A DNA stretch of 63,506 bases, filler included, from Reclinomonas americana ATCC 50394 (GCA_048213135.1; 14 parts of 14 records of this genome joined end to end with filler, not necessarily neighbours in it); one strand, 5' to 3'; shown: positions 20 through 60,645, counted from the first letter of the whole stretch. Notes: generated from the sequence alone by a model not told the origin. A program made the numbers and translations.

Positions 20-1203
20 TCATGCAGTGGAACCCACCTCGTCGACCACCTCCTGGATCGCTCGCAGCCACTGTTGCAGGTATTCGGGCTTGTGTCGCGG
101 ATTAACAAACATCATCTCCGGCACTCCATCCTCCTCGTCCAACGGGACCAGCCGGAAGCCGTCACTCATCAACTGCACATCGACATCCTCCAGCTCCGAC
201 GCCACCACATGCTTACCGTTGTACGAGACGTACTGGTGCAAGCAACGATCCATCAACACACACCAATGCTCCCGATTGTACGCTGCACATTCGCCAGTTG
301 GTACGCAGCACACACACACGCGCGCACACATAGAGAGGAGCGCCACGCAACGTCGCACAAACAGACTGCCGCTCATGGTGACGACGCCCAGCGGCCCGCT
401 GCCGACGAGCATCTCCTCATCGCGCTGCACAGCCAATCGCGACACGCGTTCCTCGCGCGTCTCATGCACCTCCTGCGCTCGTCGAATGGCCGCAATCCAC
501 TCCTCAATCACCTCGTCCGTGGCGTGCTTGTCATCGAAAAACACCATCTCCTGTCCCGGTCGCCCACGCAAGCGCATCGCGTTGGGTCGGAACGACGATC
601 GTCGCACATACAAGCCGCCAATGTACACCTCGAAAGTAGGGTTGCCAGGACACTACGTGTGTGTGTGCGTGTGAGCAACACCCATGTGCACGCAAGAGCG
701 AGAGAAATCGTTAACAACGCAACATCGGCCAAAGTCGCAAACGCACGCAATCGCGCTCCACTCAGCGTGCACCACAGGCGATGCCACACCGGCGACGTGG
801 GATCTAATGACACAGATGCACGCACACACACAGACACATAGACAAAGAGCAACAAAGGGGGAGTGAGCGCACAAAGAACACACACAATGGCCATCGCGTG
901 CAACACGCGCCGCCGACCTTGATACGTCAAAAAGCCCTCCTTGCTGGCCACGCTCAGCGAGCTCAAGTTGAGCGCCAGACTCGTAGGCGACAGCGAGTGA
1001 TGGTGCTGATGCTTGTGCGTGGTCAACGACGTGCGCACAGGAGGAGGAGCAGGAGGAGGCGTTCCACCACCACCACCACCACTCACAATTGCCGCAGCCC
1101 GTGCTGACATGGCATGCGCGGCCTGTTGCTGATGTTGATGCTGCTGCTGCTGATGATGATGATGATCGCCACCACCACCACCAACGCCGTCGCGATCGCC
1201 CAT
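20..1203 (-). CDS. Tandem PH-domain protein (spliced; 3' end uncertain)
   Basis: Spliced product reads KEGFLTYQ-DPTSPVWHRLWCTLSG...EEWIAAI, then MSGSLFVRPYNREHWCVL...QQWLRAI: two PH-like repeats, each with the C-terminal helix Trp. His/Gln/Pro low-complexity N-terminus. Introns at about 805-917, 653-723 and 283-351. Confidence 0.7.
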
Positions 1204-1260
1204 AATGAACGGTGACAATATCACGCTTTGTCCAGATGCTCGCTCCGTCATTCGCCATCG

Positions 1261-4200
1261 ATGCTTCGTGTGGGCGTCGATGTTGGCGGCACCAACACCG
1301 ACTGCGTGGTGCTGTCGGTGGACGATGGAAAGTGCCGCATTGTAGCGGCGCAAAAGTCGCCGACGACCGATCCGGTGGAGATTGGCGTGATCCGCGCGGT
1401 GCAGCAGGCGATGCGGCAGGTGGATGCGGCGCAGGTGGCCGCCGTGCGCGACATGATGATTGGTGGGTTGGTGGTGAATGGAGCGATTGTGTGTGTGTGT
1501 GTGTTCGGAATAAATTTCAATCATGCATTCCCGCTTGCCAAGGCACGACGCACTTTGTGAATGCCGTTGCGTGCTTCTATCGTTTTGCATACGCTGCGTG
1601 GTGGCATGGCGACTGATGATGATAAGCGTGCAGGTGGTGCAACGCAAGGGACTGACCAAGGTCGCCGTGCTGCGACTGTGCCACTACGCGACAACTGCGC
1701 TGCCGCCGTTCGCGGGGTGGCCCGACGATTTGGCTGAGTTGGTCAATGGTCGGTGGCGATTACCGGCGTGGGTGGAGGGAGTGCGATCGTGTTGATGGCA
1801 TCTCTCTGTGTGCAGGTTATGTGGCGATGCTGCCGGGTGGGTTCGAGTTTGATGGCAGTGTGATTGCGCCACTTGGGGAGGACGCGGTGCGTGTGGCGGC
1901 GCGCGAGGCGATTGCACGAGGGTGCGTGTGTGCACTCTGTTGTCGTCGTGTGGCCACGCGGTGACTCTCAAGCGCTGCGCAGCATTCGAGCGGTGGCGAT
2001 TGTCGGCGTGTTTGCGCCGGTGTGCACCGAGCAGGAGAAGCGAGCGCGTGATCTGGTGCGCGATGAGTACGAGAAGGCCGGTCAGGCCGCTGTGCACGTC
2101 ACCATGTCGTCGCAGATTGGTCGCCTCGGGTTCAAGCAGCGCGAGAATGCCACCATCATGAATGCGTGTCTGCGAGACCTGGCAGTGACCACCATTGAGG
2201 TGAGCGGCGACATTGCAGAGAGAGCTGGATGTTGTTCTCTAATCTGCTGCATGTGCGCAGGGATTCGAGCGCGCTGTCAAGTCCGAGCTCGGCCTCCGCT
2301 GCAACTTGTTCCTCACCCAGAACGACGGCACTCTCATGTCGAGTCAGCTGGCGTGCGAGTTGCCGGTGCTCACCTTTGCGTCGGGGTGAATCCGCTTTTC
2401 CTTCCTCTCCCAGTCGCTCCACACATGCTGACACTCATCTACTGATACACTGCAGACCCACAAACTCCATGCGAGGCGCTGTGTTCCTCTCCGGCCTCAC
2501 CAACGCCGTCGTCATCGACATTGGCGGCACCACTTCCGACGTGGGTCTATTGAGCGACGGGTGTGTTCCACTTGTGCCTCCCACTCTCCCACACATGAGC
2601 CGCTGATCTCGCACATCGTGTCAGGTTTCCTCGTGAGCGTGCACTCGAGGCCTCCGTGGGAGGCGTGTTGACCAATTTCCGCATGCCGGTTGCGTCGCGC
2701 GTGGTCATGCACGATCGTTCTCGTGAGTGCCTCATAGTGCGTGACACGCAGGATGTGCATTCCTTCGGTCTCGGAGGTGGGAGTCGTGTGCGCGTCAGCG
2801 ACACGGGTGCGGTGACAATCGGCCCCGACAGTGTCGGATACCGCTTGGTGCAGGAGGGAATTGTGTTTGGTGCGACTCTTCCTCTCCCTGCCTCTCTCGC
2901 CCAGCATCACGCAGACGCTCATTGTGGCCGAGCATGCAGGGGGCGACACATTGACGGCGAGCGACATTGCGGTGGCGGCTGGATTTGTGTCGATGGGTGA
3001 TCCCACCCGACTGCATGGCAAAGTAACGCCCGAGATGGTGGACAAGACTGTCGACTTGATGGTCGCCATGCTGGAGGAGGTCAGATGTGTGCACGAGAAC
3101 TCGCAAAAAATGACCCTCTCACTCTCCAAACAGAGCATCGACCAAGTCAAGCTGAAGACAGGCGCCATTCCGGTGCTCCTCGTCGGCGGTGGTGCAGTTC
3201 TTGTTGGCAACCGGTCACTCGCCGGAGCCAGTGAGGTTTTTGTGTGGCCATCAACGTGCGATCTGCGTGCTGGCTACTCACCACAGCGAGTGCAGATTAT
3301 TGTTCCTCCGTTCTCCGATGTGGTGAATGCAGTAGGTGAGAAAGGAGAGCACTGTGCTGGCTTATGTGGATCATCATGAGAGTAACACTGCGCGCGTGTG
3401 CGTGTGTAAGGCGCTGCGATTGCGCAGGTCAGCGCCGAGATCGACACGATTGTCGATTTGCCGCCGGCGCAGCACGACGAGATTATCCTGGAGCTGCAAC
3501 GGCAGGTCACGGCACAAGTGGTGGCCGCCGGAGCGCACCCCTCCACCGTCTCCGTGCTCGATGTCGACGAGGTCTGCAGCCGAGCACCACAGATGTACAC
3601 CAAGGATTTGCATCCGTCTCATCTTATCCTGGTACGCAGGTGGCGCTGGCATATGTACCCGGCAACAAGAGGCACGTGCGCATCAAGGCCGTGGGTGACC
3701 TGTTCATGTCTGCCGGTACGAGTACCGGTGCGGGCGCGGACAGCATGCCATCGGTCGCCGTCGAACGAGAGACAGAAACGCACGGCCACAGTGCGTCTTC
3801 GGTTGCCTCCATTGCGCCCGCAGGCAGTACGCAGTCCAGCAGCGGCAGCGGTCCGCAAGCAGCCGTGTTTGCAAATCACAACGTTGTCGACGAGCGCGAC
3901 ATCGAGGTGGACGCCGACGGCATGTGGGTGCTCAGCGAGCGCGATGTCGAGTTTATGACGTTCGGCGCCTCGATTCTCGGGTCGGGCGGTGGCGGAAATC
4001 CGTTGCGTCACCAATCCCTCGGTACCGCAGTGGCGCACCTCTCACGTGCGCTCGTCTCTGTTGTAGGTACTCGTCCAAGATGCGTGCGCTGACTGCACTG
4101 CGCGAGGGCAAACGCATTCGTGTCATGTCGACGCAGCAGCTCGCGGATGACGATCTGGTGATTCCAATCGCCTTTATCGGAGCCCCCACTGCCATGTACG

Positions 4201-5786
4201 TGTCTCTATCGCTGTCGCTTCGTAGCAGGTGACTGTAACCACCGAGAGCATGCAGGCTCGAGAAGCTATGTGCAGGCTTCGAGTGCTCGAACAGCTTCCG
4301 CGCACTGCGAAAGCTGGCTGACTTTGCAGAAAAGGTGTGAGACCTTGTGCACCGCAGCACATCCATTGACCCTTTACGCTCACCTCTTCTTGTGCGCAAC
4401 AGCGTGTCCGCGGTCTGATGCCGATCGAGGTCGGCGGTCTGAACAGCATCGAGCCACTGCTGACGGCCGCTCACATGGACGTGCCGGTGGTTGACGTCGA
4501 TGTTGCGTGGCCGCCACTGTTGTTGTTGATGAAGAAGACGGGAAAATCACGTATCTCTGTGGACAGGGCATGGGCCGGGCGTTCCCCGAGATGCAAATGA
4601 TCTCCTTTTATGTTGCGTTTATGAGACGGGAGGGAGGGAAAGAAGAGACGACTTGCTCACTCACTCTGCCGACGAGCAGATTAATGGACTCGACTATGCG
4701 CCGTGTGCACTGGTGTGTTCTTCCTGCTCTACGGCGCATGTGGTATTGTCACTTGACTGCTTTCGTGCGCCACAGTCAGACGACAAGGGAACGAGCTTGG
4801 TAGTCACGGATGTGCCGTCGCCCAAGGGCCTCGAGAACGTAATGCGCACCATGTTGCGTCGCAGTGCGCTTCCACACCGAAGCCACACACACAGCTCACG
4901 TACTGGTGGCGCAGTACGGTGCACTTTGGTTGCTCTGGCGGCCTCGCCCTGTGCCCACTCTCTGGAGCTCAGCTGAAGCAGCACGGTGTGCTCGACACGC
5001 TGAGTTTGAGCTGGCGCATTGGACTGGTATGCGCGCTCGTGGAGTCCCCCGAGTGCACCGCTCCCATTGCTAATAATCCTCCCCTGGTGGTGGCCGCGCC
5101 AGCTGGCCCACAACAGTCGCGTTCTGAAGCAGGATCCTGTGGAGGCCATCGCGCACTACTTGCAAGGTCGTGTGGTGTTCCGCGGCAAGGTGGTGGCTCT
5201 CGATCGCGGCACTGTCGGTGGCTTTGCGCGTGGAGTGGTGACTGTGGGAGGCGTGGGCGAGCACTGTAAGGAGTCCATGCTGATTGAGATGCAGAATGAG
5301 AACTTGGTGAGGCGAAGAAGCTGTGTGGCAAGGTTCCTCTGGCACAGACTGATTTGTTTCGCGGCAGATGGCCTGGCTCCGTTCTGCGGACGGCACAAAG
5401 ACGGTGGTGGCTTGCGTGCCAGATCTTATTGTGTGCGTCGAGACCGCCACCTGCAGTGCCATTACTGCCGAGGAACTGCGATACGGTATATATGTCGCCA
5501 ATATCGCCCCGTCGATGAAAGCGTACCCATCACCCTGCTGTTGCACACGTGCAGGTCAGCGAGTGTCGGTGATGGTGCTGCCGGCGCCCTCGGTCATGCG
5601 CACGCCGCAAGCGCTAAAGGTATGCTGTTCTCGCTCAACCACACTGCGTGTACACTGTACCTCATTATTGTGTGGCAGGTGGTGGGGCCGGCGGCATTCG
5701 GCTTCTCCAACAGCGCCGAGTACCCAATGCTGCCGGGCCACATGGAGGCCAAGTCGGTGTTCTACCACGACCAGCACCCCAAGTAA
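1261..5786 (+). CDS. Hydantoinase/oxoprolinase A-like domain fused to DUF917 (about 24 introns)
   Basis: N-half motifs GVDVGGTNTD, IGTTHFVNAVVQR, LTQNDGT, TFASGPTNSMRGA, DIGGTTSDVG, GLGGGS. C-half DUF917 motifs ILGSGGGGNP, IGAPT, PIEVGGLN, DGMGRAFPE, QNENL, VPDLI, EELRYG, VVGPAAFG. All joins are GT-AG and in frame; TAA at 5784-5786. Confidence 0.92.
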
Positions 5787-6583: not shown

Positions 6584-7706
6584 ATGCGACGTGTGAGCGT
6601 GTTGCTGCTCTCTCTGTTGGTGCTGCTGGTGGCGGTGGCGGTGGTCGAGTCCAGCACGCAGCGACTGCGTGGTGGCGACGAGGTGCAAGGCGTCTCGCGC
6701 ATCATCGCCACTGGTAACAAGTGCGACGGTGGCGTCTTTTGTTCTTACAAGAACGTGCTGCTGTTGGAGCTTCAGCCGAGTGGGAAGGCGGCGGTGTTGG
6801 CCACGTTGCAGAGCAAGGTATGCGCTGTCTCTTGTGTGTGTGTGTGAGGAGGAGGAGGAGGAGTGCATGCCACTCATGCATTCATGATGATGCAGGTGCG
6901 CTCTCGTGACGTCGACAGCCAGTCGTATCTCAACGCAGTGGACGCGACGCATGGTGTCGTGTATGCACTGGTGGTCGATGGCGCGTTGAACACGCTCTCG
7001 TTTTACCAGTGCGTTGAACTTCTCCTGTGCTCGTTGCGTGAAGTCCTTTTTTTCCGACTCGTGCGAGCGCAGGTACAACGTGGCCTCGCAAGCGCTCTCC
7101 ACCATGATGGTGACCAACTCGACTGGTCTTGGTGCGCCGCTGACTATGGACTTTTACAATGGGTTCCTGTACTTGGCAAATGCACAGAATCAGTTGCGCG
7201 TCTTTCTCTCCAGCCTCCTTCTCTCCCCCTCCTCACATGCATGCGCGTGGCAGCCTGTTTGCCGTCAACGTGGCCACTGGCATCATGTCGGACATTGGGT
7301 TGCTGGTGAGTCTCCGCTGTACATCGCCCCTGTGTGTGTGTGTGTGTGCATGCACAACGATCTATCGCGTCGCAGGTGCCGTCGCAACAAGCGAATCAAC
7401 TCGTGCATGGCGGGTTGGTGGCCCTTGACCCGAGCACCAATTCACTGTACTCGTATGTCATCGACAGCGGCATGAGCGCCATGAACTACTACATTGCCAC
7501 CTGCACGCTCATCCCGGCTCAGGTGACCTTTTCTTTCTTCCTTTTTTCCGATCTCATGAGATATTGACACTCTCTCTCTCTCCTTCTCCTTGTGCCGGCT
7601 GAGCAGGGATGCGTCAACGCCACTGTCTCGCCCGGAACGCCCTACGATTCCGGCTCCTCCAGTGGCACCAAGTTGCGTGTTGACGACAAGAGAAAGACAC
7701 TCTCTC

Positions 7707-7755
<49 letters not shown>

Positions 7756-8146
7756 NNNNNNNNNNNNNNNNNNNNNNNNNNNNNNNNNNNNNNNNNNNNT
7801 TAATTAATTAANNNNNNNNNNNNNNNNNNNNNNNNNNNNNNNNNNNNNNNNNNNNTGACCAGTGGTTCATGACGGTCGGTGTGAGCGACGGCTCGGAGAA
7901 TGTTGCGTCGTTATGTTTTGCGCATGTGTTTGCCCGACGTACCTGTCTCTCACGAGTCATCCCGCACAGGCAAACACGGTGCTCCGTTTCCAGCTGCCGT
8001 CTGGCAAGTTGCTGGACGCCAACGGTCTGTCGACTCGCGCGCACGTGTCTCATTTGTGGAGTGTGTCTGTGCTTACAGTGCCGACTGCAGGTTGGACGAC
8101 GATACCGCAGACGTACTCGAATGTCGATGCGTATGTGCTGGCCTGA
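6584..8146 (+). CDS. Secreted protein of unknown function (spliced, spans gap 7756-7855)
   Basis: Hydrophobic signal peptide MRRVSVLLLSLLVLLVAVAVVES. At least 7 GT-AG introns join a beta-strand-rich open frame ending NVDAYVLA-TGA. Confidence 0.7.
7756..7855. other. Artificial scaffold spacer (first of 13)
   Basis: N run + TTAATTAATTAA + N run, 100 nt. The others are at 11865, 21630, 29903, 34142, 37454, 39200, 41003, 42624, 45756, 50499, 54827 and 60661. Confidence 0.98.
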
Positions 8147-8275: not shown

Positions 8276-11200
8276 TTACGAACGCGACGACGACCACAGG
8301 CGCTCGAATTCGGCCCGCCGCCTCCGATACAGTTTCTCCTCCACCGGTAAAGGTGGTGCGCGGCACGGACCACAACAATTCTCGCAACAGCAGCAGCACG
8401 GACAACGCCACCAACAGCACTGCCTTCGACCTGCGCGTCCCACAAAGCCGTCGCCGGCGCTGGAGACCAGCAGTGCGGCCCGATCGACACGCGGCTTGCG
8501 CACCTGCAACATCAGACACGTAAGTGAGTCATCTCTCCCTCTCGGTCACACATCCACAGGAAAGTGCCGCACCAGCGCCATACGCGGGTCGTTTGCCACA
8601 CGCGAGGCTCGCGAACCGCTCGATCCAAACGCCGCCTCCTCGTCTGCTTCCTCGTCGACGGGACTGGGCGGGCAGCACTTGCACGAGAAGCCACTCATGC
8701 ATGCTTGGAGCGGTCTCTTCCAGCATTGCAGGGGCACAATAATGAGCTCCCACAGCAAGCACAGCACAAAGTTGACGGTGAACAGCAGCGCGAGTTGCAT
8801 GCTGTGCGAAGGGTGAGTGACGTGAGCGTTTGTGCGCTCACTCGGCAAGAAAAATCACAAACCAAAAGTTCATCGGCATCTCCATCATGCTGAAAAAAGT
8901 CCGTACATGCATCTCAGCGCCAAACAACAAGAAGAGAACGAAGCCGGAGACCAGAGCCAGCACGAGAACGAGGGGCCCTGCGCGTGCTCTCACTGTGTGA
9001 GAGACTCACGCAGACACAATGCACAAGCGGCAACGGAAGAAGCGCAACAGTTGGAGAACATGGTGCGTCGGTGAGGTCTGGCGGGATTCAGAGGGAACGC
9101 CAGGAATGTGGTCTGCACAGCCGTGGCCAAGAACAGTGTGGTGGTCTCGTATGTCAGGCTGAACTTGTCGTTCGGGTTTGGTCCGAATATCGGAACCCAC
9201 CTGCATGTTTCGAACCCAATCAGTTTCCTCGCCATCACCAGCAATGCTCCATCCCACGTAACCAACTCTGTTCGCGCACGTAAAAGTACGCAAACACCTG
9301 TACGAGGGCGCACAAGACGAACTGGCCCACCAGCGACACGAGGATCGGCGGCGCGGTGAGCGAGGCAGGTGGACTTTTCTTGGCCAGCTTTTTGGAAGCC
9401 GCCGTTTGTGCCACTGTGCACGCACTCAGATGGTGAGCCACAAACACACCAGCATAGCATGTCGTAGCTTGTGTGTGTGGTGCGCAACTGAAGAGAGTAA
9501 TGGGAGTGGCGATAATCAAATCCAGCACGAGATACTCGAGGTCACTCGGCACGGCATTGTCAAGAATGAGAATCGCGGTCGTCATGTACTGCAGCAAGCT
9601 GCGTTTGAAAGAAAACACACGGTCAGCGACATGAAACAGTGGTACAAGTATTCGCAACCTCAATCAATGCACCTATACTCGGCCACATAGCGGAACAAAG
9701 CAAACGAGGCCACCAGGCCAGATCGCCCCTCCCTGCAATAATGCCAGTGGGGTCAGGAGATGGTCGACGCAGACGACTGTCGCCACCAAAGGGGTGCACG
9801 CAACTTGAGCATAGTTACAACAGATCCGATTGAATTGACCTTGGAGGTAAACGGTGCCGCGATGGAGGCCTCGGCATCGGAGAGCGAGAGACCGACCTGC
9901 ACGAATATCGTGAGGACTGCACTGGAGAAGCAATCGGCGATTTTCCGTACACAAAGACGCACATGAGCGGCCTTGAGGGCACTGCAGTCGTTAGCTCCGT
10001 CGCCACACATGGCCACCGTGTATCCCATGTCCTGGTAGCACTCGACAAGCTGCGCTTTTTGCGCTGGGTTGGCGCGAGCAAACACAGCGCAACCAGCCAG
10101 CACCTTGGTTGATCATCATTGTGAGCAAATGCAAAAACAGACAGAAGCAACGGAGAACAGGCGTTCTGCGTACCTTTTGGAAGAACGAATCGCCGTCGAC
10201 ATCGCCGCAATGTGCCGTGCGCAGCAAATGGAAGCACTCGCCAGTCATTGCCAACTCGAATTCACGCACCGCCACGCCCTGCATCGGCTGCACCACGGAT
10301 GAGTCGGCAACTGACCGCGCGACTCGAACGCACGATGCGAGCTGGGCTACCTTTAGATTGTCGCTCAGCACGTTGTCTGGATTGTAGGGATCGACCCACC
10401 GAATGCCGCCGTCGCCAGTGGGCTCACTGAGAAATACCGTACGATCGCCACGCAGGATACCGCACTCACGCGCCACGGCAACAGCGGTGACGGGGTGGTC
10501 GCCTGTTTTTTTTGGTGCACCCAACGCTGTTGAGTGACGCACTCCCACGTATACAAGGCCTGCGACGATGATACCAACCAGTAATCATCACGCTGCGAAT
10601 GCGCGCGTCAGTCAGCTCGGCAATGTGCTGTGTGGTATCCGGCTTGAGCGGGTTGTGCAGCACCACCAGGCCCAGGAACTGCAAGTCGCTCTCCACGGCC
10701 TCCCTGCGCCATGCGTGCATCAGGCAACACGTCGCACAAGATGATGAGATTGTGACGAGTGCGACTCGCACCTGGCCAGCGCTCGTACGCGACGCCAGTC
10801 GTTGCCGAGAGGCTTGAAGGCGTACGCAATCACGCGGTACTGCTGACGCGCGTACTGTTGATTCACGTCCAGCGTGTCGACCGGCACTGCACGCATGTTA
10901 TCGATCGCATGTGAGCAGCAAATCAGAATGAAGGGGCGGTGGCGAGGCAAGTTCCACTCACCAGAGGCTGGTACACACAGTTCGCGAATGCTCTCCGGCG
11001 AGCCCTTCACGCATGCCACGTAGCCGCCGTCGCATGATATGATGGTGCTCATGCGGCGCAAGTCAGGCACAAAGTCGAAATGCTTGACAATCACCAGCTG
11101 CGCACGGGCGGTACGTGAGTGCACCGAAAAGAAACCAGTCACTTCCCGGTGGAAAAAAACGCAACAGAGCGGCGTGACTCTTGCAGCGTGATCTGCGTGG

Positions 11201-11786
11201 CCATTTGGTCTGGTTCAGGGTGCATCCCGCTGACTTCACTCATCGACTGGCCATTCACAAGCGAGTGAGACGGTGTCGCGCAACCACATTTCAATGCACG
11301 CCAGCGAATTGCACGCAACTGCTTCGCTGTTCTGGAAGATCTTGATCTCGAGTGGATCGCCGACCAGCAGCGTGTCGCCCTGAATCTGCGACAGGCTGTG
11401 GCACGACGCAACTGCGTCGGCCAGAGGCCCGTGTGCCAACGACAACTTTTCCAGCCACTCGGCAAAGTCGGCGCCACCGTCCCGTGCACTGCGTGCGAAG
11501 CCAGTTGGTACACAACGAGCTTGCACACAAAGAGCGAAGAGCAACGCACGAGACGGTTCGAGCACCGAGGACGTCGAGGCCGTCGGTGGTCAGCGTGCCT
11601 GTCTTGTCGAAGCAGCACAGATTGACCTTGCCGGCCAGATTGATTCTGTGCGCACGAGATGGCAAGTCGGTCAAATGCAGCAAGAAGATTGCGTTCGAGG
11701 GCGAAGGCTCACCGTGGCGGACTGATGCAATAGATCTGCTTCTTCCTGAGTCGAGCGGCGGCAGCCATGGTTCCCGTCGTCAGTGC
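8276..11786 (-). CDS. P5B-type ATPase (ATP13A2-5/Ypk9-like), C-terminal part; N-terminus lost in gap
   Basis: [27 protein letters not shown] (phosphorylation site), [80 protein letters not shown], followed by transmembrane segments. Confidence 0.93.
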
Positions 11787-43198: not shown

Positions 43199-43236
<38 letters not shown>

Positions 43237-43815: not shown

Positions 43816-43888
43816 TGCCGTGGGTGAGACTCGAACTCACAACCTCGGGCTTATGAGACCCACGCGCTACCGGTTGCGCCACCACGGC
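43816..43888 (-). tRNA. tRNA-Met(CAT), elongator-type
   Basis: GCCGTGG/CCACGGC acceptor stem, anticodon loop CT-CAT-AA, GTTCGA T-loop, G1:C72 pair, and a downstream oligo-T Pol III terminator. Confidence 0.95.
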
Positions 43889-44913: not shown

Positions 44914-45259
44914 ATGTCTCAGGGGTTGTGTGTCGTCGCGCTTGTGGCGCTCTTTGTTTGCATCTTGGCTCTCTCATCACCGTTGGTCAATGGTGAGTCG
45001 CACGTGCATGCGCGCGCGAAAATCAACATGCAGTGCACTGACTTTGCTTGTTTGCTGTGTTAGGACACCGTGTGGACTGCTCAACTAACCCCTCTGTTTG
45101 CGGTCCTCATGTTGCGTTTCCTCTCTTGCTGTGTGTGTGTGTGTGTCACAGTGTGTGTGTTGAGAGTGTGCGAGAGTGTGTGTGAGGAGTTGATTTCTCC
45201 GTGGTGTCCCGACTTGTGTACAAAGAGGCATCTCCCACACTGTCTCTCTCTAACACACT

Positions 45260-45655: not shown

Positions 45656-45855
45656 GTTGCGTCTCCTGTACTTGATGTTGGTGGAAGTACTCCTTGCTCT
45701 CCTCCTCCCTCTTGCTCTCCTCCTCCCTCTTGCTCTCCTCCCTCTTGCTCTCCTCNNNNNNNNNNNNNNNNNNNNNNNNNNNNNNNNNNNNNNNNNNNNT
45801 TAATTAATTAANNNNNNNNNNNNNNNNNNNNNNNNNNNNNNNNNNNNNNNNNNNN

Positions 45856-48800
45856 GTCGAACGAGTACATTCGCGGCGTCGGCAGCGGCGACTCGGCCTG
45901 GTACATGAACGTGGGTGAGTCGGCACCACGTGTGGACATGGCACGGGGCGTGGTCCGTGCCGACAGCGGAGCAGTCAGTCCCGACACCGCATCCGACACA
46001 GCAGAACGCGGCGACGGTGCCGGTGACACGCTCCCGGCCACGCTCGGACCAGGCGATGGTGCCGCATACTGACGTGGCGAGCCAATGGAACTGCCGGCTC
46101 CACCTCGTGGTGTGCTCAGTGGCGAGTAGGGGGCGGCCAGCGGATTCACACGTGGCGTGCTGACCTCGCTTCCGTTCCACACCTCCCCCAATCCCCCCGC
46201 CAGCATGGCGGCTCGTGTCGCCGAGTCCAGCGATTCGGCACCGCGCACCGACGGTACGCGTTCGTGCGAAATCTCGTCCACACTTGGCAAGTCCGGTGGC
46301 GGCGGTAGCTCCGGGGCCCGTTCGACAGCGTTGAGTGCGGCAATGTTGAGAAGCGGCATTCGCACGCGCGCAGTGCCGCTCACGTAACGCGTCGTGTCTG
46401 CCGATACTGGACTCAGCACCGTTTCGGCCGGCTCCGCAACCGCCACCGCCATGTGGGGAAACAGCTGCAGCCAGCGCTCCTCGGCCATGGAAGCCGACAG
46501 ACGCCGTTTCGTTGCCAGTGACACGGGCGGTTCGTACGGGGCGGCGACCGGAATGGGAAGGCTGCGCGGTTGTGAGATCTGGTGGTGACTGTCGCCGTGC
46601 GTCGGCGATGTTGGTGCGCTCTCGTCGATCTTGCCCTCGCCACCTTCGTCCTTACCGTGTCGATGCCGGTGGTGGCGGTGTCGATGATGTCGATGGTGCC
46701 GATGTTCGCCATTTTCCTTGTCGTGGCGATGTTTGTGTCGCCTGCCGGAGCGTGGCGTCTCACCAGGGCTCTCCGTCGGCGACATTTCGCCGCCAGCTGG
46801 TGAGCGCGGCGTGGCCGATGCTGTATCGAGGGCCGTGGGTGACCTCGGCGACGCCTCCTGCACAGCAGCGACCACAACGTGCGGCACGCCAGCAGCTCTG
46901 GTCGCCGCCGGTGAAGCGACAGGTGTTGTCGGCGACGTTGGCGTCGGTGTTGTTGTCGTTGTTGTAGTGGCCGTTGTCGTCACCGCCACCACAGCCGGAG
47001 GAGGCACAGTGTCTTGTTCCGCTGCTCCGGCAGCAGCAGCAGCCTTGGCCTCGGCCTTGAGCCGACGCCGCTCTTCCCGCTCTTTCCTGCGTTGACGTCG
47101 CTCCCTCCTTCGCTGCTTCTCCAACTCCTTATCGTGCTTCGCTTGCTCCTCTGGCGACAGCACGGGTTGCGCGAGGGGTGTCACTGCGGCGGCCATGGCA
47201 GAAAAGTCTCCAGAGGCATTCGGGGAGGCAATGATGATGGACGCGGGCCGCGGAGGCGGCGTCTGCTCCACCACCACGTGTTCCGCCTTACCGCCCTCCG
47301 ACTGCTCCTGCATCTCGGTATGCACCGGTGTCTCCACTCGCTGCTGCTTCGCCACCGGCGACGATGGGACGGCAGTCTTGGACAGACTGCCGGGTGTCGG
47401 CGAGCTCGGTAGTACATCGTGTGGCCTCTTCGACACCACCTCCATAACACGCTGGAGAATGTAATCGAGGACGTACGTGACAGACGAGGAGACTCGCGGG
47501 GAACCACCTGCGGAAGAGAGAGAGAGAGAGAGTGAGACAGAGTGCGAATGGAGGGCAAACATGTGGGGGCGAAACAGAGACCTTTTGGTGTACGTGGTGT
47601 GGGTGAGCCTGTGCTGACCGCGTTCGGATCCGCATCGAAAAACGATGCCGTCGTGTGTGGCGCAGTGCGCGTCTTGTCTGCGCCGTCAAGAAATGTCAGT
47701 GACCACGTGGACACGATGGAGAGTGTGCGAAAAAACAAACAAACAAACCTTTGCGTTCTCTTCTCTTGTTGTGACGCAAGTGCCTCCGCAGGGTCTGCTC
47801 GGGCAGAATCGATTCGAGAATGTCGTTCGCCGCAAAGTTCAAGTAGTACAGCGAGCGGTTCTGTAATATGCGCGCCGCCAGCGTGCCCGCTTGCTCGGGA
47901 GCCACATGGCAACCTGGAGGGAGGAAGAGAGTGAGCTGCCGGAGTGAAGTGAGCGACAAGCGCACCACTCTCACCGGTAAAATCGACATCATGCAGGCTC
48001 TTGTTCACTGCCAAGCAGTCGGCTACGGCTCGCGTACCAGCGTCGCCCAGTGTGTTTCCTGCGTGCATCGATACGAGGAAACAATAAGACGACCCGCTTT
48101 TCTCCGAGGAGGAGGAGATGAAGGAGGATCACCGCACCGGCAAAGTTTAGTGCGTGCACCGACGAGTTTGAGGCCAAACTGGTGAAGATAATGGCGCTGC
48201 CGGTTTCGGAAATGCCACAGCCTGCGTGATCACCACAACAGGCGTCAGCTCTTCCTACGCCCACGATGACTGTAATGCGGGCGACGTAACTCTTGACTGA
48301 GAGCTCTCGTAATCTGCATCCAGGCGTGCCGAGCGCGGAAGCCAGTGACATGGCTCCATCGTCGTCGATAGCAATGTCTGTGGGAGAGGGGCCACGCGTG
48401 TCACACACCCACACGCAACAAGGCGCCTCTGCGGCAACACAGCAACCCGTCTGACGCGCGCAACTGTTGAGATTGAGATGCCGCAACATCGGAATATCCA
48501 ACAAGCGATGCTCCAACAACACCAATCCCAGCGTGCTCAGCGCGTTCCCTGCGCCTCGCTCGTCACACACACAAGCACATTGCATCTCGACTCGCACGCT
48601 CACTCACCTCCCACATCCACGTGTGTCGGGTACCCGTTTCTCGAGACACAGTCGAGCAAGATCTCAAAGCCACGATCGGTGACCAGATTGTCTGCGTGCG
48701 ACCCGCGTGTCATGCGACTATAGGCGCTGGTAGGCAACTGGGGGAGAAGAAGCAACAACAAAAACACAACTGGCCAAGCTACAGCACTCGATCACCAATC

Positions 48801-49381
48801 CCGACGTGAGCGCATAGTCAATTGCCGCCACCGATTCATCCGTGAGCGCATTGTCTGCGTGCACAGTGTCGGACTCCGCCATGGGAAGAGTGAGAGGGAG
48901 GGAGACACGCAACTGCTCACGTCGAGCTCGTGCAAATGCACCGAGCGTGTGACCAGGCAGTTGACGACCACCGCGAACTCTTCATCGGCCAGTGACGAGC
49001 CTAACGCGAACACGCACATCAGTGACAAAGGAGACTGGAGTGTGCGCGCGTGTGTGTGTGAGAGAGAGACTGTACCTGACAGATCGAGAAAGACAAAGCC
49101 CGGTCGCCCGGGTACCTCCTCGCACATGCGCAACACCTCTGCCTCGATCTCATTGTCGACGCGCTGTGAACGCACACACGAGAAGAGAGGAGAGAGAGAA
49201 GAGAGAGGCAGAGAGGTGTGAGTTCCGATCTTCGGACAAACAACTCTCGCTTCTCTGCTTGTTTGCTGTTGTGTGTGTTGTGCGAAACTCCCAGTGCGAT
49301 CTCTGTGGGCTCCACGTAGAGAGGAGGAGGCGACGGCGACGCTTGTGCAGCAGCGACAGCCGTCGCACTGGCGCGCTGCAT
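45856..49381 (-). CDS. RNI-like leucine-rich-repeat protein with long disordered Ser/Pro/His-rich tail (3' end in gap)
   Basis: Repeats LHELDVSNNALTDES, LRHLNLNNIAIDDDGA, LRELSVKSCGISETG, VHALNFAGNTLGDAG, LHDVDFTGCHV, LYYLNFAANDI; long open exon 45856-47507. Confidence 0.8.
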
Positions 49382-49940: not shown

Positions 49941-51517
<1,577 letters not shown>

Positions 51518-53929: not shown

Positions 53930-54670
53930 TCACCTTGTCTTCTGTTTCCGTGCGGCGCCCGCCAGCGACAGCATGGACACGACGGCGGCGGCGAGCAATC
54001 GCGCCAGCATGCCGCACATGGCCAGCCACAAGAAACCGTACACAGCGAGGCCACCCTCGATCGCACCTCCGCATCCGAGACGCGCCTGCAACCACGCTGG
54101 CGCATGCTCCTGCAGCAGCCATCCCACAGTCGAAGAAGAAGACGACGGGCACCACGCATGCGCCGGCACTGTGACCGCAGCCGGATCGGCCAACCACGCA
54201 AACGACATGACCGAGCAGCTGACCAGCAGCACCGACAAGAGCAGCTTGAGCAGCTGCGAGACGGCCGGCACACTCAACCACGTGGCCGTCGACATCACCG
54301 CTGCAGCAGGCGTGAGCATGCGAGTGAGTGAGACAACTGCGCGCACACACTTACACACACGCAACGACGCGTGGCCAGATACTCATCCAGCTCCTTGCGC
54401 AGTGGCTGCAGCTCGCGACTCTTCTTCGCAAACTGCACAAAGGTGGAGGGTGTGTTGAGGAGGCGGCATTCGTTCTCCAGCTGTGCCACGCGATCGGCCA
54501 GCTGTCGTACGTGCCGACTCGGACGCTGTGTCGCAAAGGGGTGAGTGTGTGCGATGAGAGAGAGAGAGAGAAGAAGAAGAAGGAGAATGCATCACCTTCC
54601 ACAGCCACAGGCTGAGAGACACGACAGTCTCAGCAGCGACTGCAGCACACGCAGCGCTCCACACAAACAT
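53930..54670 (-). CDS. GET1/WRB-like tail-anchored protein insertion receptor
   Basis: N-terminal TM, coiled coil QLENECRLLNTPSTFVQFAKKSRELQPLRKEL (resembles the GET1 PSTFAxxAKxxR loop), then two more TMs; two introns. Confidence 0.7.
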
Positions 54671-54926
54671 TGATGCGATCGAGTGAGGGGGGGTGGGGGA
54701 CAAAGTATTATTTCTTTTGGGACCGGCATTTTTACTTTTGGCCTGGCATTATAACTTTTCGGCCCCTGCTGCCCAAGCGACCCCTACACTCGTCCGCATG
54801 CGTCTGCCACCAGCGCAGCCTTCGCGNNNNNNNNNNNNNNNNNNNNNNNNNNNNNNNNNNNNNNNNNNNNTTAATTAATTAANNNNNNNNNNNNNNNNNN
54901 NNNNNNNNNNNNNNNNNNNNNNNNNN

Positions 54927-57817
54927 TTCCGAAGACAAGCTTCGTCAAGCATGGAGTGCGAGTTGCTGGAGACGTGTACTCCACCCCACACACCTCACCT
55001 TGTGCCGGCAGCGTCGGGCGGCAGCGTCTCTGCACCACTCACGCCACCCTCCGGCGCACACTCGACGCCCACACTTGTCGGCGTCAGCGCCGCCTCGCCC
55101 CCTCGCAACCTCTTCTCTCCTGGCCAGCCGCAGTCGCAGCCCATGTCCACCACAGCCTCCTCATCATCGGCCTCCTCGTCCACCTCAACCTCCCCAGTTG
55201 TCGTACCACCACCACCAGCTTCCTCTGCGCCACCCTCGCAGCACAACCTCTCGCTTCCTGTGCACACCATGGGCAAGCACAGCAACAACAGCGCCTCGTC
55301 CATTCCTTCACCCAGCGCCAGTGCGGCTGCTGGAGGAGGAGGAGGAGGTGGATCACCAGGCGCCATGTCGTATGCCACCCACGCCACACAGTTTGGCCCT
55401 TCGAGTCTGTGGTACACTCCGCGACCTCCATTCCAGCGAGGGAATGGTGGCAGTCCGAGTGGACTGATGTCCACGATGGGAAACAGCGTGGCAGGTGCAT
55501 TTGGAATGTTTGGCGGCGGTCATCGTTCGGGATCCGAGTACTTGTCAGAGGTAAAACACGCAGGGGGTCAGCAAGAAGGGAGCGAGGCATGTGCGCTGAC
55601 TGCTTCTTCTTGTTGTTGTTGTTGTTGATGTGCTCTTCTAGCATGAGGAGGTGTCGACGAGAAAGATTGGGCGGGTGATATTCAGCGTGGTGCTGATCTC
55701 GCTGCTGGCACTCGGTTTTTACTGGATCATGGGCAACTATCTCGTTCCCATGTTGCGTCGCAGTGGTCGATGCGGCAAGCCGAAAAGCGGGAGCACAGTG
55801 CTGACCTCTCCCCCTTCCTTTGTCGTCGTCGTTGTCCCTTCAGTTTTCTGGCGTTCATGTGGAGTCTGGTGACAACTCGCGGCCACAAGCGGATATATCG
55901 CTGGATGCTGCGACTCGACGCACGAGTGTACAACTTGGGCACGCGCCTGTTTGGCCCGTCGACACCCATTACGCGATTCGAGAACCGCATTGGCGTCATT
56001 GATCCGTGCAAAGTCAAGGGATGGCTGTTGTGCACGGTGCTGCTGTTCCTCCTGTGCTGTTGCGTGCTCTCGCTCTCTCTCTCCTTGTATCCCGCACACA
56101 CTAAATCTGCCCCTCCGCTCTGCGCAGGGACCTTCATTTTCTCCTTTGGCTTTGCCATTCTCATCACCTTTACACTGGCCATGGTGATCATGGCGGTGGC
56201 GAGCATGGACCGCGCTCTGCTGGCCTCGCTGACCGTCACCGGCATTATGATTGTGTCCATCCTGGCACTCATCGGCTTGGCCACTGGCGGCTTTTATGTG
56301 GAGGGTCAGCGCATCATCCACTCGGTGATTGCGTACCTGGAGACGGAGCAGATTCAGACGCTGCTGACGAATCACGAGCGATCGCCCATCTACCAGTGGG
56401 CACTCGAGCAATTCGAGTTCTTTGGCTTCAACACGAGTCTCCTCGACCCGGCGTACTTGCAGGATGAGGTGCGTGCACAGCGTTTGGCAAGCAAATTTCT
56501 TCGCAGATGCTTACATGTGGAGGGGTTTCGGCGTGTGCAGGCCGTGGCACTGGCGTACGCTCTGGCCAAGAAGGGCGACATTTTGCTCGACGGTGCCCGC
56601 AAGGGCCTGTCGGTGGCCTCCGACACGGCGTTTTCGATTGTGCTGTTCCTCACCAGCTTTGTGTACTTTTTGCAAGTGAGCGATGAGTCGATCGATGGTG
56701 CCGCCACGGTGCATCAAGCGATATCTCACTCTCTTTCTGTCGTGCAGTTCAACCAACAAGTGCGCAGCGCCATGAACACACTGTCGCCCTTTGACGGTGA
56801 CGTGACGAGGCGCCTGTTCAAGGATCTGGAGCACTCGTGGGTCCGCATCACGCAGGCCTTTGCGCTCATCGGTGCGTTGTGAATCTCTTCGAGTAGCTGT
56901 CCGTGCATGAGCTGACACCGGTACGATATATGGCGGAACAGGCGCGATGAATGCGGTGGCGACATTCATCTCATTTTACTACTTTCTCGATTACCTGACG
57001 TTCCTGCTGCCGGCACTGAGTGCGGTGTTGTCCACGCTGCCGGTATGTGTGTCTCTGTGTGATTTGTGTGTTGCCCCTTCTGCTGCTCTGTTGCCCCTTC
57101 TGCTGCTCATCTTCTAATGCAGGTATTCTCATCGTGGATTGTGTGGATTCCGGCCTGTATCTACTTGGCGATCGAGGGCGCGTACTGGCGGGTGATTTTT
57201 GTGGCCGCCATCCACATTGCTACCACGTGGCTGCAGACGCTGGCCTACGCCGTCATTCCACACACGCATCCGTACGCCATCTCTGTGAGCGTGGTTCTCG
57301 GACTGTACGCCATGGGTCCAGTCGGGTCGCTCGTCGCCCCCCTGCTCCTCTGCTTGGCCACGCAGTTGTACGCGCAGTACGCCGACAGTCGCCCTGGCGA
57401 CGACTCGAAAATCAAAATGTCGTCGTCGGAACCAGTGGGTGAGCTCGGATCGACGCAGGAATTGCCTCACGGTCGCAAGCGCGGCCACTCTGACGTTGCG
57501 TCGCACCCGAGTCTGGCCGCGCCGACAAGCGTCTCAATGTCTTCATGAAAAACTCGCAGGCGGAGGTTCGTAGTCCACTCGGAGGGGGCTTGGACACACC
57601 GAAAAGCCACATTGACGCGTCGGTGCCACCAACGTCGCACCTGCGACGTGGATCGGTGACGTTCAACACTGCCACTCCCGACAGCCCGATTGTGGTGGAA
57701 CAGTACGCCGAGGAGGCTCCGGGTGGCTTTGGCACACCACCGACGCGCGGCGGCGTCACACTGCGGCGACCCACAGTCAATGGCGAAGAGGCCGTGTACA
57801 CCATGCACCGTTCGTGA
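54927..57817 (+). CDS. TMEM245-like / AI-2E-family multi-pass membrane protein (5' end probably in gap)
   Basis: Multiple TMs; IVLFLTSFVYFL and HPYAISVSVVLGLYAMGPVGSLVAPLLLC resemble the AI-2E/TMEM245 C-terminus. Intron 57495-57559 removes the apparent early stop. Confidence 0.68.
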
Positions 57818-57918: not shown

Positions 57919-60421
57919 TCAGCAGCCGACGAATCCGCGACGGCGGCGGCGAGGCTGAGAAGCAGGCTCCTGGGCCATCAGCTGCACCACAGTTGCCTCC
58001 TCGTCACCAGGCGGCTCCACATTGGCGGCGACGGTAAGAGCGTTCTGATCGTAGGCCACCTGCGTGTGGTTGGTTCCGAAACACGTCGTGAGTCACAGAA
58101 AAATGCACAGCAGAAGCAGCTGCTGGTATGCTGCCAACACACCTTGATGTCGTCGAACTTGAAGTGCTGGATGACTGGGACGGGGATGAGTACGCGCTCC
58201 GCCAGCAGCTGGTTCAGGGTTGGCAGTACAGCTGCAGGGCGAGCAGAGTGGATGAGATGGCAGGGGAAGGGGGGGTGAGGACATGAGCAATCGGCGCGGA
58301 AAGCGCAACTCTTGAATACTTGGTCGAGGAAGTTGGCCAGCTCTTTCTCGTCGAAGGGCAGTCGTGTGTGATTCTGCACGCAACAAGACGTGTGTATGTG
58401 TGTGTGAGTGAGGTTGCAGGGGCAAACAGCAGGGAGACGATGCTAATGCTGACCTTCAGAATGAAATCAAACTGCAGAGAGTCCAGCTGTACATGCAACG
58501 AGACAACAGTGAGTGGAAATCGAAGTGCCTTGAGGGAACAGAAGACGAGCATGGGTGACTCACATCGACTTCGGGCACTTGCAGATACACAAAGGTGCCA
58601 TTCACGTTGGTGACGGACAGAGCCTGTGCGACCCTCGTGAGTGGCCAGCCCACAACACCGCAGTGGGAATGAAAAAAACGGCAAACCTCAGCATCCAGCA
58701 CCACATGCGAGTCAATGCCGAAAGCAAACTCGGGGAACAGCGTAAAGTTGAACACGGCGCTCGACAGCAAATCAAGCTTGATGCCGTCGGTCGGATCAAT
58801 GTTGATCAGCGGAATACCCGTGACCTGTGGTGCACGATAATGTATCAACAAAATGCGGACGATTGCAAACAGGCTCGCCGTCGCAGCGCGCAACATTCAG
58901 TGAGATGTTGAGGTCGTGCAACAGGCCGGTTTTGCCGGCCGTCAGCGACACCTGCAGCAAGTCGTGCGTGTAGAAGCTCCAGAAGGCACCTTGGAAAATG
59001 CTCTGTCCGATCGACACCGCGGCCGCCTCCGTCTCCGGCGGGACCGGCACCGCAGTGGGTGCGAAGGGCGAGTTGTGGTTGGTGGTCGGGTCTGTGCGAC
59101 GCAGCAGTCAGCACACACGGACAGCTTCCAGCAGACTTCCTTTCATCTCCCCGCGCACCAAACACTTCGCCGAGGATGGATACGAGAGCGCCGGCTGGTG
59201 AGAAGACAATGGGGCCGGCCAAATGGTAGTCAACGCCCAGCACCTTGTCGACCACGGCCTTGAAGGTGAGCTTGGCAATGGCCTGTGCGGCAGCCTTGTT
59301 GACCGACGGCGCCAGCTGCGAGCGCACCGCATCTTGCACCTTGTCGTGGATGAGTCCTTGGAAGATCTGTGTGCGCGCAATCAGCTTTGGCGCACATGCG
59401 CTAGAGGGGAAAGGAAGGCGGGGACCTTGATTAGCGTGTGGAGTCTGCAGACAGGAAACCGAATCATGGTGAGCACGGATCGAGGATTTTCTCTCTTCGC
59501 GCATGCACACTCACCCGCCGCAAATGTCGAGATTCCATCTGCGATATGACGGACACAGACGCAGTAAGCACCGGCAACAGCAGCCAGAGCGTACTGGGCG
59601 GCCGGGGAGAAACGCAACGAGCCCAAGTTAAATCCCACATTTCCAGTGTTGACCACCGGCACGCCATTGCTCTCCGCGATCGTAATGGTGAAGCTCAGCT
59701 GGAACAATCAACACAAGAATGTCAGAGTCAATAATCGACACACAAGTCGGTACATGCTCACCGCCGTGGCTCCAGCGGCCGAAACACTCATATCGCCCTC
59801 GCAGATCTTCACGTGCCCGACCGCATCCTCCTCGATGCGATAGTGGCCGGCCAGCACCACCGAGATGCCTGCAGCACCACCACAAGTCAACAGAAGGACG
59901 CACAGGAGAGTCAGACATAGAGAGAGACCATTCATCGCCACTCCGACACCACTCGTGTTGGTCGACACTGTCACACCACTGCGCGCACAGCATAAGACGG
60001 AAGCCAGCAGAAGAGACTGAGAGACACACACGAACCTCGTCTTCACCGTCTTCAACACCATGTTGTTGAGCTCCACGCGGAACCCATCTGCAATCACACT
60101 CACTCAGTCACAACAAAACACAAAAGGCAGACAGACACAGACAGACAGAGACAGAAACCTTGCTTGACATCAATGCTCTGAATGGGTGTTCCCGAGAGAC
60201 CGGCCTCGATCTGTGGCACGAGGTCGGCGACCACCTTTTGCACGGCGGCAGTCTCCACAAACGCTTGCACAGCAGGCACATTCGCTGCACTCGCGCACGA
60301 CTACAACGCAAGAGTAAGAGAGAGTGTGTGTGTGTGTGAGAGAGAGGGAGAGAGAGCAAAGTACCAGTGTGGTGGCAAGCAGCAACAGCAGCAGCAACAC
60401 AGAGACAGCAGCGCGCGTCAT
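57919..60421 (-). CDS. Secreted BPI/LBP-like (TULIP) lipid-binding protein, about 12 introns
   Basis: Signal peptide and about 500 aa of alternating long helix and beta strands: LGVDYHLAGP, ILGEVF, FAPTAVPVP, SIGQSIFQGAFWSFY, VLPTLNQLLAERVLIP. Confidence 0.7.
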
Positions 60422-60470
60422 CGTGTGAGAAAACTAAGAAGAGCGTGATTGTCCGCGCTCAGTCTCTCTC

Positions 60471-60645
60471 ATGCACGAAGTGTTGCGTGCTGTGCTTCTC
60501 TCTCTCTCTCTCTCACTCACTCACTCACTCTGCGATGCTCCTTTGTCAGTGAGGTCGCTGTGGACTTCCCGTCGGAGTATTTCGCACAGGTGGCCGCACG
60601 CTCGCTGTCGGCCGATGCCGAAGTGAGACCAGAGCGATTGTCGCG
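60471..60645 (+). CDS. PCC1/LAGE3-like KEOPS subunit, 5' part
   Basis: MHEV|EVAVDFPSEYFAQVAARSLSADAEVRPERLSR fits the Pcc1 pattern F.s...A.ia..sL..D.E. Intron 60482-60549; the rest is lost in the gap. Confidence 0.65.

Follow-up and report, generated by a model that had tools for sequence, protein, structure and literature searches.

In the 63,506-base stretch of Reclinomonas americana ATCC 50394 DNA analysed here (GCA_048213135.1; the whole stretch is called the window), a first-pass annotation had listed 37 GT-AG introns starting with GTTGCG and had taken them for a major second class of 5' splice sites. On the evidence of the sequence, GTTGCGY is confirmed as a genuine, discrete and abundant GT-AG 5' splice-site class, which accounts for about 20-25% of the introns. 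GTTGCG is present at every one of the 37 listed positions, on the strand assigned to each, and the motif is written GTTGCGY since the seventh intron base (+7) is mostly T or C (T 26, C 9, G 2; n=37).

Placement of GTTGCG at intron starts

The class emerges from protein homology with no donor model involved. Homologues were gathered with single exons as queries (an initial search with an unconserved exon of the ATPase gave no matches), and the local profiles built from them were aligned to the DNA with a purpose-written spliced aligner that picks the donor by protein homology alone, its sole splice rule being GT...AG, or GC...AG under a heavier penalty, at a spacing of 30 nt or more, and nothing but the dinucleotide being scored. 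Across three conserved genes, this alignment recovers 11/14 listed sites, namely 6/6 in a gene fusing hydantoinase and DUF917 domains (1566, 2689, 4002, 4502, 4612 and 4853, among 24 introns), 3/5 in a P5B ATPase (9804, 9488 and 9048, among 14 introns) and 2/3 in a DEAH helicase (14172 and 14687, on which two independent profiles agree). The helicase site 16183 was not recovered, nor were the ATPase sites 11319 and 11165, which lie in an unconserved stretch. GTTGCG opens 11 of the 50 homology-derived introns (22%, binomial p = 1e-12) and 6 of the 24 (25%, p = 7e-8) forming a strict subset with gap-free and well-scoring flanks, against a background of 73/7958 GT hexamers in the window (0.9%), which bears out the earlier estimate of roughly a quarter of introns. 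All 11 verified class introns run from GT to YAG and keep the homologous frame on removal.

The junctions that the first-pass annotation had pinned by conserved protein motifs held as well: NA/VVQR and MP/DV in the hydantoinase and MLK/EGR in the ATPase (a slash marks the splice junction) were recovered by the homology-only alignment, and AITSA/YYRG in a Rab11-like GTPase and ELIK/ in a mitochondrial carrier are backed by Pfam profile continuity. In the hydantoinase, the 23-nt micro-exon 1543-1565 (G TTHFVNA), flanked 5' by an 80-nt intron ending in AAG, restores ..IGTTHFVNA/VVQRK.., a motif present in both homologues; it was missed by the gene finder and found by homology. The gene finder likewise read through 2689-2751, the retention of which would insert 21 residues into the conserved MP/DVHSFGLGGGS.

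Continuity of Pfam profiles, assessed with single-exon coordinates, supports 25071, 50657 and 37693. At 25071, CLP1_P position 58 lies six residues before the donor and the profile restarts at 67, residue 3 of the next exon. At 37693, Mito_carr position 30 is the last residue of the exon and position 32 is residue 2 of the next exon, on the other contig. At 50657, Ras positions 4-49 fall in exon 50803-50943 and positions 68-157 run from residue 1 of exon 50213-50485, which leaves 18 Ras positions for the 53-nt exon whose end is the donor. Weaker is the match at 60482, where residue 2 of the next exon corresponds to Pcc1 profile position 4.

A donor-blind ab initio gene finder, seeded from Pfam-hit segments and devoid of any donor model, places 11/37 listed sites exactly and newly supports 7902, 40487, 55752, 60482, 351, 723 and 58309; its commonest donor hexamer is GTTGCG, at 14 of 211 noisy calls. 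The Pfam search on the 150 longest open reading frames gave few matches, since the exons are short, and these were used only as training seeds; unseeded self-training led to poor models. With a learned donor hexamer table, the same finder reaches 25/37 listed sites, which is circular evidence.

Regarding local sequence context, a strict test demanded that each side of the site be open in frame and score positively as coding, and that CTVAY and, 45-130 nt past the site, YAG follow. It is passed by 14/37 listed sites, by 68 of 1500 other GT (4.5%) and by 0/36 unlisted GTTGCG copies, and adds support for 7193, 16183, 48913 and 54365. Since the homology-proven sites 1566, 4502 and 14172, next to short exons, fail it, this test is too stringent for use as a verifier. 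Independently of splice positions, counts based on gene strand only in 40.9 kb of confident genes give a sense:antisense ratio of 45:7 for GTTGCG, the largest excess among GT hexamers (p = 2e-6). Counted over both strands of the window, the 73 copies of GTTGCG exceed the 48.2 +/- 8.2 found in 100 dinucleotide-preserving shuffles, none of which reaches 73; this overall excess is modest and the real signal is the placement of the copies.

Altogether, the first-pass list of 37 introns stands in large part, 25/37 sites having donor-independent support, and in the remaining 12 (7672, 45656, 23765, 45111, 57495, 11165, 11319, 36785, 38534, 48464, 58894 and 59618) there is no tool support or circular support only, none of the 37 being positively refuted. 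Likely members absent from that list are 12857 and 56059, both called by the donor-blind finder, and 13661 is a possible one, called by the hexamer-trained finder. The 12 sites would suit an annotation artefact, in which many donors were misplaced by a motif-seeking reader and the real share is small, as would the preference of the homology alignment for a GT lying 5 nt downstream at 11319 and two sense copies that go unused in homology-verified ATPase exons, on the minus strand at 10093 (G/GTTGCGC) and 11412 (a perfect A/GTTGCGT). Such an artefact is nevertheless very hard to credit when homology alone yields GTTGCG at 11 of 50 introns, the donor-blind finder ranks it first, the sense excess owes nothing to splice positions and the strict local test separates listed sites from control GTs. 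Since the copies at 10093 and 11412 are exonic, in sense and unused, the heptamer by itself is insufficient for donor use.

Anatomy and proposed register of the heptamer

The ordinary donors, represented by the 39 other homology-derived introns, form a weak G/GTNNGY mix with less than 2 bits beyond GT. They have G at -1 in 30/39 cases (17/18 in the strict subset), G at +5 in 25/39 and a purine at +3 in 26/39 (G 19, A 7, T 7, C 6). With T at +3 and C at +5, the GTTGCG class does break the usual rule of +3 purine and +5 G, as first proposed, and it departs from the canonical U1 register, which also includes the -1 G. The description of the motif as the common local donor GTGCGT with one T inserted is partly right: the heptamer equals G/GTGCGY one base out, but GTGCGN donors represent only 6/39 of the ordinary ones, among which GTGAG and GTATG types are also present.

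At the exon end, the class lacks the -1 G, found in 1/37 listed sites vs. 30/39 ordinary ones (Fisher p = 4e-12) and in 1/11 verified introns vs. the same 30/39 (p = 8e-5), G preceding 133 of 483 exonic sense GT (27.5%) as background. The base composition at -1 in the class (A16 C7 G1 T13) differs from that at ordinary -1 (p = 1e-9) and matches that at ordinary -2 (A15 C5 G6 T13; p = 0.27). Donors starting with GTT and lacking the GCG core (GTTGGT, GTTACG, GTTTGT, GTTCGC and GTTTTT) belong with the ordinary class since they keep the -1 G in 5/7 cases.

Beyond the heptamer, class introns resemble the others. Median length is 68 nt in both, the verified members spanning 62-75 nt, and intron phases are alike. 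CTVAY occurs in 9/11 class introns vs. 26/39 others (35/50 overall) with the same mix of motifs (CTCAC, CTCAT, CTGAT and CTGAC in the class), the branch A lying at a median of 17 nt vs. 18 nt from the 3' end. The acceptor is CAG or TAG in 11/11 class introns vs. 32/39 others; the non-YAG acceptors among the latter (AAG 5, GAG 2; 1542, 3410, 5400, 10104 etc.) may in part be misplaced, some lying in weakly aligned stretches. CGCAG acceptors, counted by eye with a UGCGU/ACGCA donor-acceptor pairing in mind, number 4/11 in the class vs. 6/39 in others. Since length, branch motif, acceptor and composition match those of other introns, the sequences show a major-type spliceosome common to both classes for the 3' half.

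The tight lengths and the fixed 5' heptamer could also be expected of an introner relic, with GTTGCGT as the preserved terminus of an ancient repeat family; introners with family-specific donors are described in Micromonas (PMC3879977). Pairwise local scores from +8 to +55 are however the same within the class (7.1), among others (6.8) and across (6.9), the top-scoring pairs are (CT)n microsatellites and the information content is near zero past +7. With no similarity among members past +7, an introner origin was rejected and is highly improbable.

Moving the boundaries one base downstream (TT...GN) is disfavoured by the junctions that are informative, in 3/11 introns: at 9488 the codon across the junction encodes M, which is the profile consensus and scores +2.85 bits, vs. 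R (-1.66) after the move, at 4612 I and V are equal in one profile and I is better in the other, and at 4853 I has a slight edge over M. The GT-AG position of the cut is thus favoured, with modest support from these alignments.

In the reading favoured here, held as a whole with belief and doubt in equal parts, recognition would concern a fixed heptamer, G-N-U-G-C-G-Y, within which the GU would then determine the cut. Where N is G, the cut would fall between both Gs and yield an ordinary G/GUGCGY donor; where N is U, the sole GU lies one base upstream and the cut would precede the first G (/GUUGCGY), the intron +1 G filling the slot normally held by the exon -1 G, i.e. a shifted register in routine use. 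The catalytic core (U6, Prp8) would fix the cut at GU, and the extra nucleotide would have to be accommodated at the U6 stage under any model. Since only the GCG core is used and standard U1 is predicted to pair poorly, the recogniser would probably be a small nuclear RNA (snRNA) 5' end or a factor fitting ..GCG.. better than standard U1, the candidates being a U1 altered at its 5' end, an additional U1, some other RNA or a protein. The suggestion of a variant U1 or U6, or of a dedicated factor, as made in the first-pass annotation, is in this respect plausible. An Rfam search (E <= 1) found no spliceosomal RNA in the window; the weak matches to miRNA families at 21250-21440 and 43020-43224 were discarded as microsatellite look-alikes.

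Two features of the sites are consistent with the fixed-heptamer reading: laid one base out of register, H/GTTGCGY is identical to (A or T)G/GTGCGY everywhere except at ordinary +1, and the exon-end statistics track this shifted alignment, in which the +1 G takes the place of the -1 G. Besides the 12 sites lacking donor-independent support and the two unused exonic copies, several points weigh against it. A G follows 8/11 verified introns and leaves the boundary ambiguous by one base there. The -1 G is scarcer in the class (3%) than G at ordinary -2 (15%). Standard U1 would form, through its 5' end, 5 Watson-Crick and 2 wobble pairs with GUUGCGU in the shifted register, 6 and 2 in the bulged register and 4 Watson-Crick pairs in the canonical one, and the best predicted duplex reaches -1.4 kcal/mol vs. 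-8.6 for CAG/GUGCGUG. Finally, a general shift predicts GTTGAG and GTTATG-like classes as counterparts of the ordinary donors, and GTTGAG shows no sense excess (6 sense:15 antisense). The idea of the local consensus shifted as a whole was consequently abandoned, a one-base shift of all donor types being rejected on that count in favour of a specific heptamer; what remains of the routine use first claimed is a putative register at 11/50 introns, confined to the GCG core.

As to the choice between a shifted and a bulged register, which the first-pass annotation had left side by side, the shifted one is favoured. In the bulged register, ordinary U1 and later U6 would pair with GU and GCGU and the U at +3 (or +2) would routinely loop out. 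This gives the most pairs with standard U1, has been validated by experiment in human cells (PMC4856993), and some bulge at the U6 stage is needed wherever GCGU stays paired. Yet -1 would then face C9 of U1 and G would be expected there, whereas it falls below background in the class and -1 instead resembles ordinary -2; besides, duplex folding gives no stable bulged helix, and in human this register is predicted at 54-68 of 201,541 sites (PMC4856993). A bulge as the general explanation is accordingly quite improbable.

A dedicated second recogniser, i.e. a U1 paralogue, another snRNA or a protein, with a 5' end complementary to GUUGCGY (RCGCAAC), would make the class a set of separately recognised introns in the manner of the U12-type, the ordinary weak donors using standard U1. 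The class is rigid with a single core (GTTGCG 45:7, vs. 6:15 for GTTGAG and 20:22 for GTTGGT) next to ordinary donors with less than 2 bits beyond GT, standard U1 is predicted to be poor on GUUGCGU in all registers, and the missing -1 G preference is expected if another RNA reads the site. There are also precedents in the two U1 5' ends of Sulcionema specki (PMC12621601) and in the U1s of Entamoeba, Mastigamoeba and Physarum (bioRxiv 10.1101/2022.06.08.495308). On the other side, the Rfam search revealed no snRNA gene within the window, branch motif, acceptor and length are as in other introns, unlike the U12 system, and Micromonas and Thecamonas, with GYGCGY or +4 C donors, keep a standard U1 (bioRxiv 10.1101/2022.06.08.495308). 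This alternative, which seems rather unlikely, overlaps the fixed-heptamer reading in that a variant U1 could read both classes in one frame. Distinctly doubtful is its more precise form, where a second 5' reader, a U1 paralogue or new small RNA carrying RCGCAAC, would pair perfectly with GUUGCGY at a quarter of introns; if true, two parallel 5' recognition systems would feed one branch-site and catalytic machinery, a layout that neither genomes with a single U1 nor those with a major and a minor spliceosome have.

Source contigs and gene content

The window derives from a fragmentary assembly, with 14 contigs of 1.5-9.7 kb each and, as joints, 13 identical 100-base spacers (N44 + TTAATTAATTAA + N44) carrying stops in six frames. 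The gaps mentioned in the first-pass annotation are these contig spacers, and the introns starting at 7672 and 45656 do run into them. GC content is 51-60%, and the window is gene-dense with many short introns (median 68 nt), roughly 7 per gene; GTGAGT occurs 193 times. Several contig ends lie within (CT)n or (GA)n microsatellites. The contigs at about 20000-45000 exhibit a strong strand skew (GC skew to -0.33, AT skew to -0.31); gene models in this stretch are poor, and the intron after 25071 is about 790 nt long.

The genes recognised encode a hydantoinase fused to S-Me-THD/DUF917, a P5B-type cation ATPase, a DEAH helicase followed by an RBR/IBR gene, a NOL9/Grc3-like kinase, a mitochondrial carrier, a Rab11-like GTPase, a Pcc1-like protein and a BNR/sortilin protein; a BPI-like gene is possible, judged by eye. 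The hydantoinase-DUF917 fusion is also found in Ancoracysta, Artemidia and one Mytilus protein, its best full-length relatives being those of Ancoracysta twista (44% identity) and Artemidia motanka (42%). The nearest relative of the conserved ATPase exon is animal ATP13A3, and the N-terminal 440 profile columns of this ATPase are missing at the contig edge by the 11865 spacer. Since the metagenomic homologues P0172 and P0178 join a helicase and IBR (PF01485) in a single protein, the DEAH helicase and the RBR/IBR gene may perhaps form one gene. The Mito_carr repeat runs on across the 37454-37553 spacer, and the two contigs flanking it are therefore genuinely adjacent, correctly ordered and correctly oriented. 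Searches of metagenome and prokaryote-genome collections found no close relatives; the helicase exon used as query against metagenomes found no relative and the Rab11 exon found 80 loci, with identity of at most 76% and none close, while an exact 40-mer was absent from the prokaryote genomes.

Table 1. Class donors and introns, genes and contig joints in the window, in order of position (frame test, strict local test; trained finder, hexamer-trained gene finder, circular).
Feature	Position	Strand	Support or remark
GTTGCGT donor	345..351	-	donor-blind finder
GTTGCGT donor	717..723	-	donor-blind finder, frame test
Hydantoinase/oxoprolinase-type domain + S-Me-THD (DUF917) N and C domains, one gene, 24 introns	1261-5760	+	
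GTTGCGT intron after 23-nt micro-exon (1543-1565), hydantoinase	1566..1633	+	homology spliced alignment
GTTGCGT intron, 63 nt, in frame, stop-free (..FRMP/DVHSFGLGGGS..)	2689..2751	+	homology alignment, strict subset
GTTGCGT intron	4002..4066	+	homology alignment, donor-blind finder, frame test
GTTGCGT intron	4502..4566	+	two profiles
GTTGCGT intron	4612..4679	+	two profiles; junction codon I vs. V
GTTGCGT intron	4853..4914	+	two profiles; junction codon I vs. M
GTTGCGC donor	7193..7199	+	frame test; trained finder
GTTGCGT donor, intron enters contig spacer at 7756	7672..7678	+	
GTTGCGT donor	7902..7908	+	donor-blind finder, frame test
P5B ATPase, partial	8693-11786	-	matches profile columns 443-1117 of 1195
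GTTGCGC intron, P5B ATPase	8978..9048	-	homology alignment; best GT/GC-AG pair in junction scan
GTTGCGC intron, P5B ATPase	9414..9488	-	homology alignment; junction codon M favours GT-AG
GTTGCGT intron, P5B ATPase (..MLK/EGR..)	9733..9804	-	homology alignment
GTTGCGT donor, unconserved stretch	11159..11165	-	trained finder only
GTTGCGT donor	11313..11319	-	trained finder only; homology alignment took GTGCAA 5 nt downstream
DEAH helicase + adjoining RBR/IBR-type gene	12131-20781	+	
GTTGCGC donor, not in first-pass list	12857..12863	+	donor-blind finder
GTTGCGG, possible extra donor	13661..13667	+	trained finder only
GTTGCGC intron, DEAH helicase	14172..14244	+	two profiles, strict subset
GTTGCGT intron, DEAH helicase	14687..14758	+	two profiles, donor-blind finder
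GTTGCGT donor	16183..16189	+	trained finder, frame test; next exon fits profile from 16256; missed by homology alignment
GTTGCGG donor	23765..23771	+	no tool support; 65-nt intron-like stretch after; frame test fails downstream
GTTGCGG donor, NOL9/Grc3-like gene; the long intron ends near 25863	25071..25077	+	CLP1_P profile
GTTGCGT donor	36779..36785	-	trained finder only
Mitochondrial-carrier repeat across spacer	37043-37861	-	Mito_carr 3-30 on one contig, 32-65 on next
GTTGCGC donor, carrier (..ELIK/), intron spans contig spacer	37687..37693	-	Mito_carr profile, donor-blind finder
GTTGCGT donor	38528..38534	-	no tool support; frame test fails
GTTGCGC donor	40487..40493	+	donor-blind finder, frame test
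tRNA gene, one	43816-43888	-	Rfam 67.7 bits
GTTGCGT donor	45111..45117	+	no tool support
GTTGCGT donor, enters spacer at 45756	45656..45662	+	
GTTGCGC donor	48458..48464	-	trained finder only
GTTGCGT donor	48907..48913	-	trained finder, frame test
GTTGCGT donor, Rab11-like gene (..AITSA/YYRG..)	50651..50657	-	Ras profile, donor-blind finder
GTTGCGT donor	54359..54365	-	trained finder, frame test
GTTGCGT donor	55752..55758	+	donor-blind finder
GTTGCGT donor, not in first-pass list	56059..56065	+	donor-blind finder
GTTGCGT donor	57495..57501	+	trained finder only
GTTGCGC donor	58303..58309	-	donor-blind finder, frame test
GTTGCGC donor	58888..58894	-	no tool support
GTTGCGT donor	59612..59618	-	no tool support
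GTTGCGT donor before Pcc1-like exon	60482..60488	+	donor-blind finder
Contig spacers, part 1	7756-7855, 11865-11964, 21630-21729, 29903-30002, 34142-34241, 37454-37553, 39200-39299		
Contig spacers, part 2	41003-41102, 42624-42723, 45756-45855, 50499-50598, 54827-54926, 60661-60760		

Known systems and significance

No description of a GTTGCG or GUUGCG donor class was found by full-text literature searches, judged by title and first part of the abstract, which did not cover the organism's own genome paper. Among established intron types, U12-type introns have their own 5' motif, RTATCCTT, and a rigid branch site of their own, TCCTTRAY. The GTTGCG class resembles them in being a minority with a rigid 5' motif next to a majority of degenerate donors, and in showing no preference for G at the exon end; it differs from them by the motif itself, GTTGCGY, by a branch site and acceptor of the majority type, and by a share far above those known for minor introns.

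Human shifted-register and bulged 5' splice sites were reportedly the subject of work by Roca and Krainer in 2009. Such registers are proven in human cells, with predicted numbers of 54-68 sites for a bulge at +2/+3 and 36-51 for a bulge at +3 among the total given above, and in the shifted register U1 marks the region only, the cut being set later, by U6 (PMC4856993). Like these off-register sites, the class combines GT-AG borders, a GUU start, a good match one base out and a cut at GU. Unlike them, it represents about 22-25% of introns rather than rare exceptions, a share hundreds of times higher, and its core is GCG, which mismatches standard U1, when the human core is AAG or GAG; moreover, the human registers were shown by experiment, the present one being predicted from sequence.

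Regarding protists with changed U1, 88-90% of Entamoeba introns begin with GUUUGU(U) and the U1 there has become (A)ACAAAC, Mastigamoeba has GUACGU donors with ACGUAC in U1, and Physarum has a standard plus a modified U1 (bioRxiv 10.1101/2022.06.08.495308). What the class shares with Entamoeba donors is the U at +3, some base preference at +7 and the lack of fit to standard U1, which is explained there by a changed U1. The difference is that Entamoeba has one motif in an intron-poor genome, whereas two donor classes coexist here in an intron-rich one. The near-universal use of an atypical motif, as in Entamoeba, does not extend to the present introns, 11/50 of which carry GTTGCG.

Irimia and Roy are said to have described, in 2008, AG/GTGCGT or GYGCGY donors in Mamiellophyceae and Thecamonas. 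Canonical introns of Micromonas have an AG/GTGCGT donor and an NCTGAC branch motif (PMC3879977), and Thecamonas (+4 C) as well as Micromonas (GYGCGY) have kept a standard U1 (bioRxiv 10.1101/2022.06.08.495308). The GCG core and the +4 C are shared with the class, in the ordinary register in these organisms, for which the available portions of the sources describe no GTTGCG class and few canonical introns per gene. The window also departs from mamiellophytes by its P5B ATPase, possible BPI-like gene, sortilin/BNR protein and roughly 7 introns per gene.

The diplonemid Sulcionema specki, with a weak G/GT consensus, possesses two U1 genes with differing 5' ends (PMC12621601). Like Physarum, it provides the precedent of a protist with weak G/GT donors and more than one U1 5' end; its U1 variant however has a C run and not a complement to GUUGCG, and in neither organism do the portions of the sources available tie a U1 variant to a discrete donor class. 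Diplonemids use (G)/GTATG or non-canonical donors, with YTRAY in at most 16% of their introns vs. 35/50 for CTVAY here.

In other words, the sequences point to GTTGCGY as noncanonical 5' splice-site recognition at the scale of a class, by a specific heptamer and not by a consensus moved as a whole. Position-weight donor models mis-score this class, with its T at +3, its C at +5 and its missing -1 G, and standard annotation of this genome likely mis-splices a large share of genes, since the gene finder used here overlooked the majority of members before it had the hexamer table. With off-register 5' sites known only as rare human exceptions, at a few hundredths of a percent, an organism with such a site in roughly one intron out of four would lend itself naturally to studying how the hand-over from U1 to U6 fixes the cut, and would serve a second question as well, that is whether snRNA 5' ends may co-evolve with intron sub-classes rather than with one consensus.

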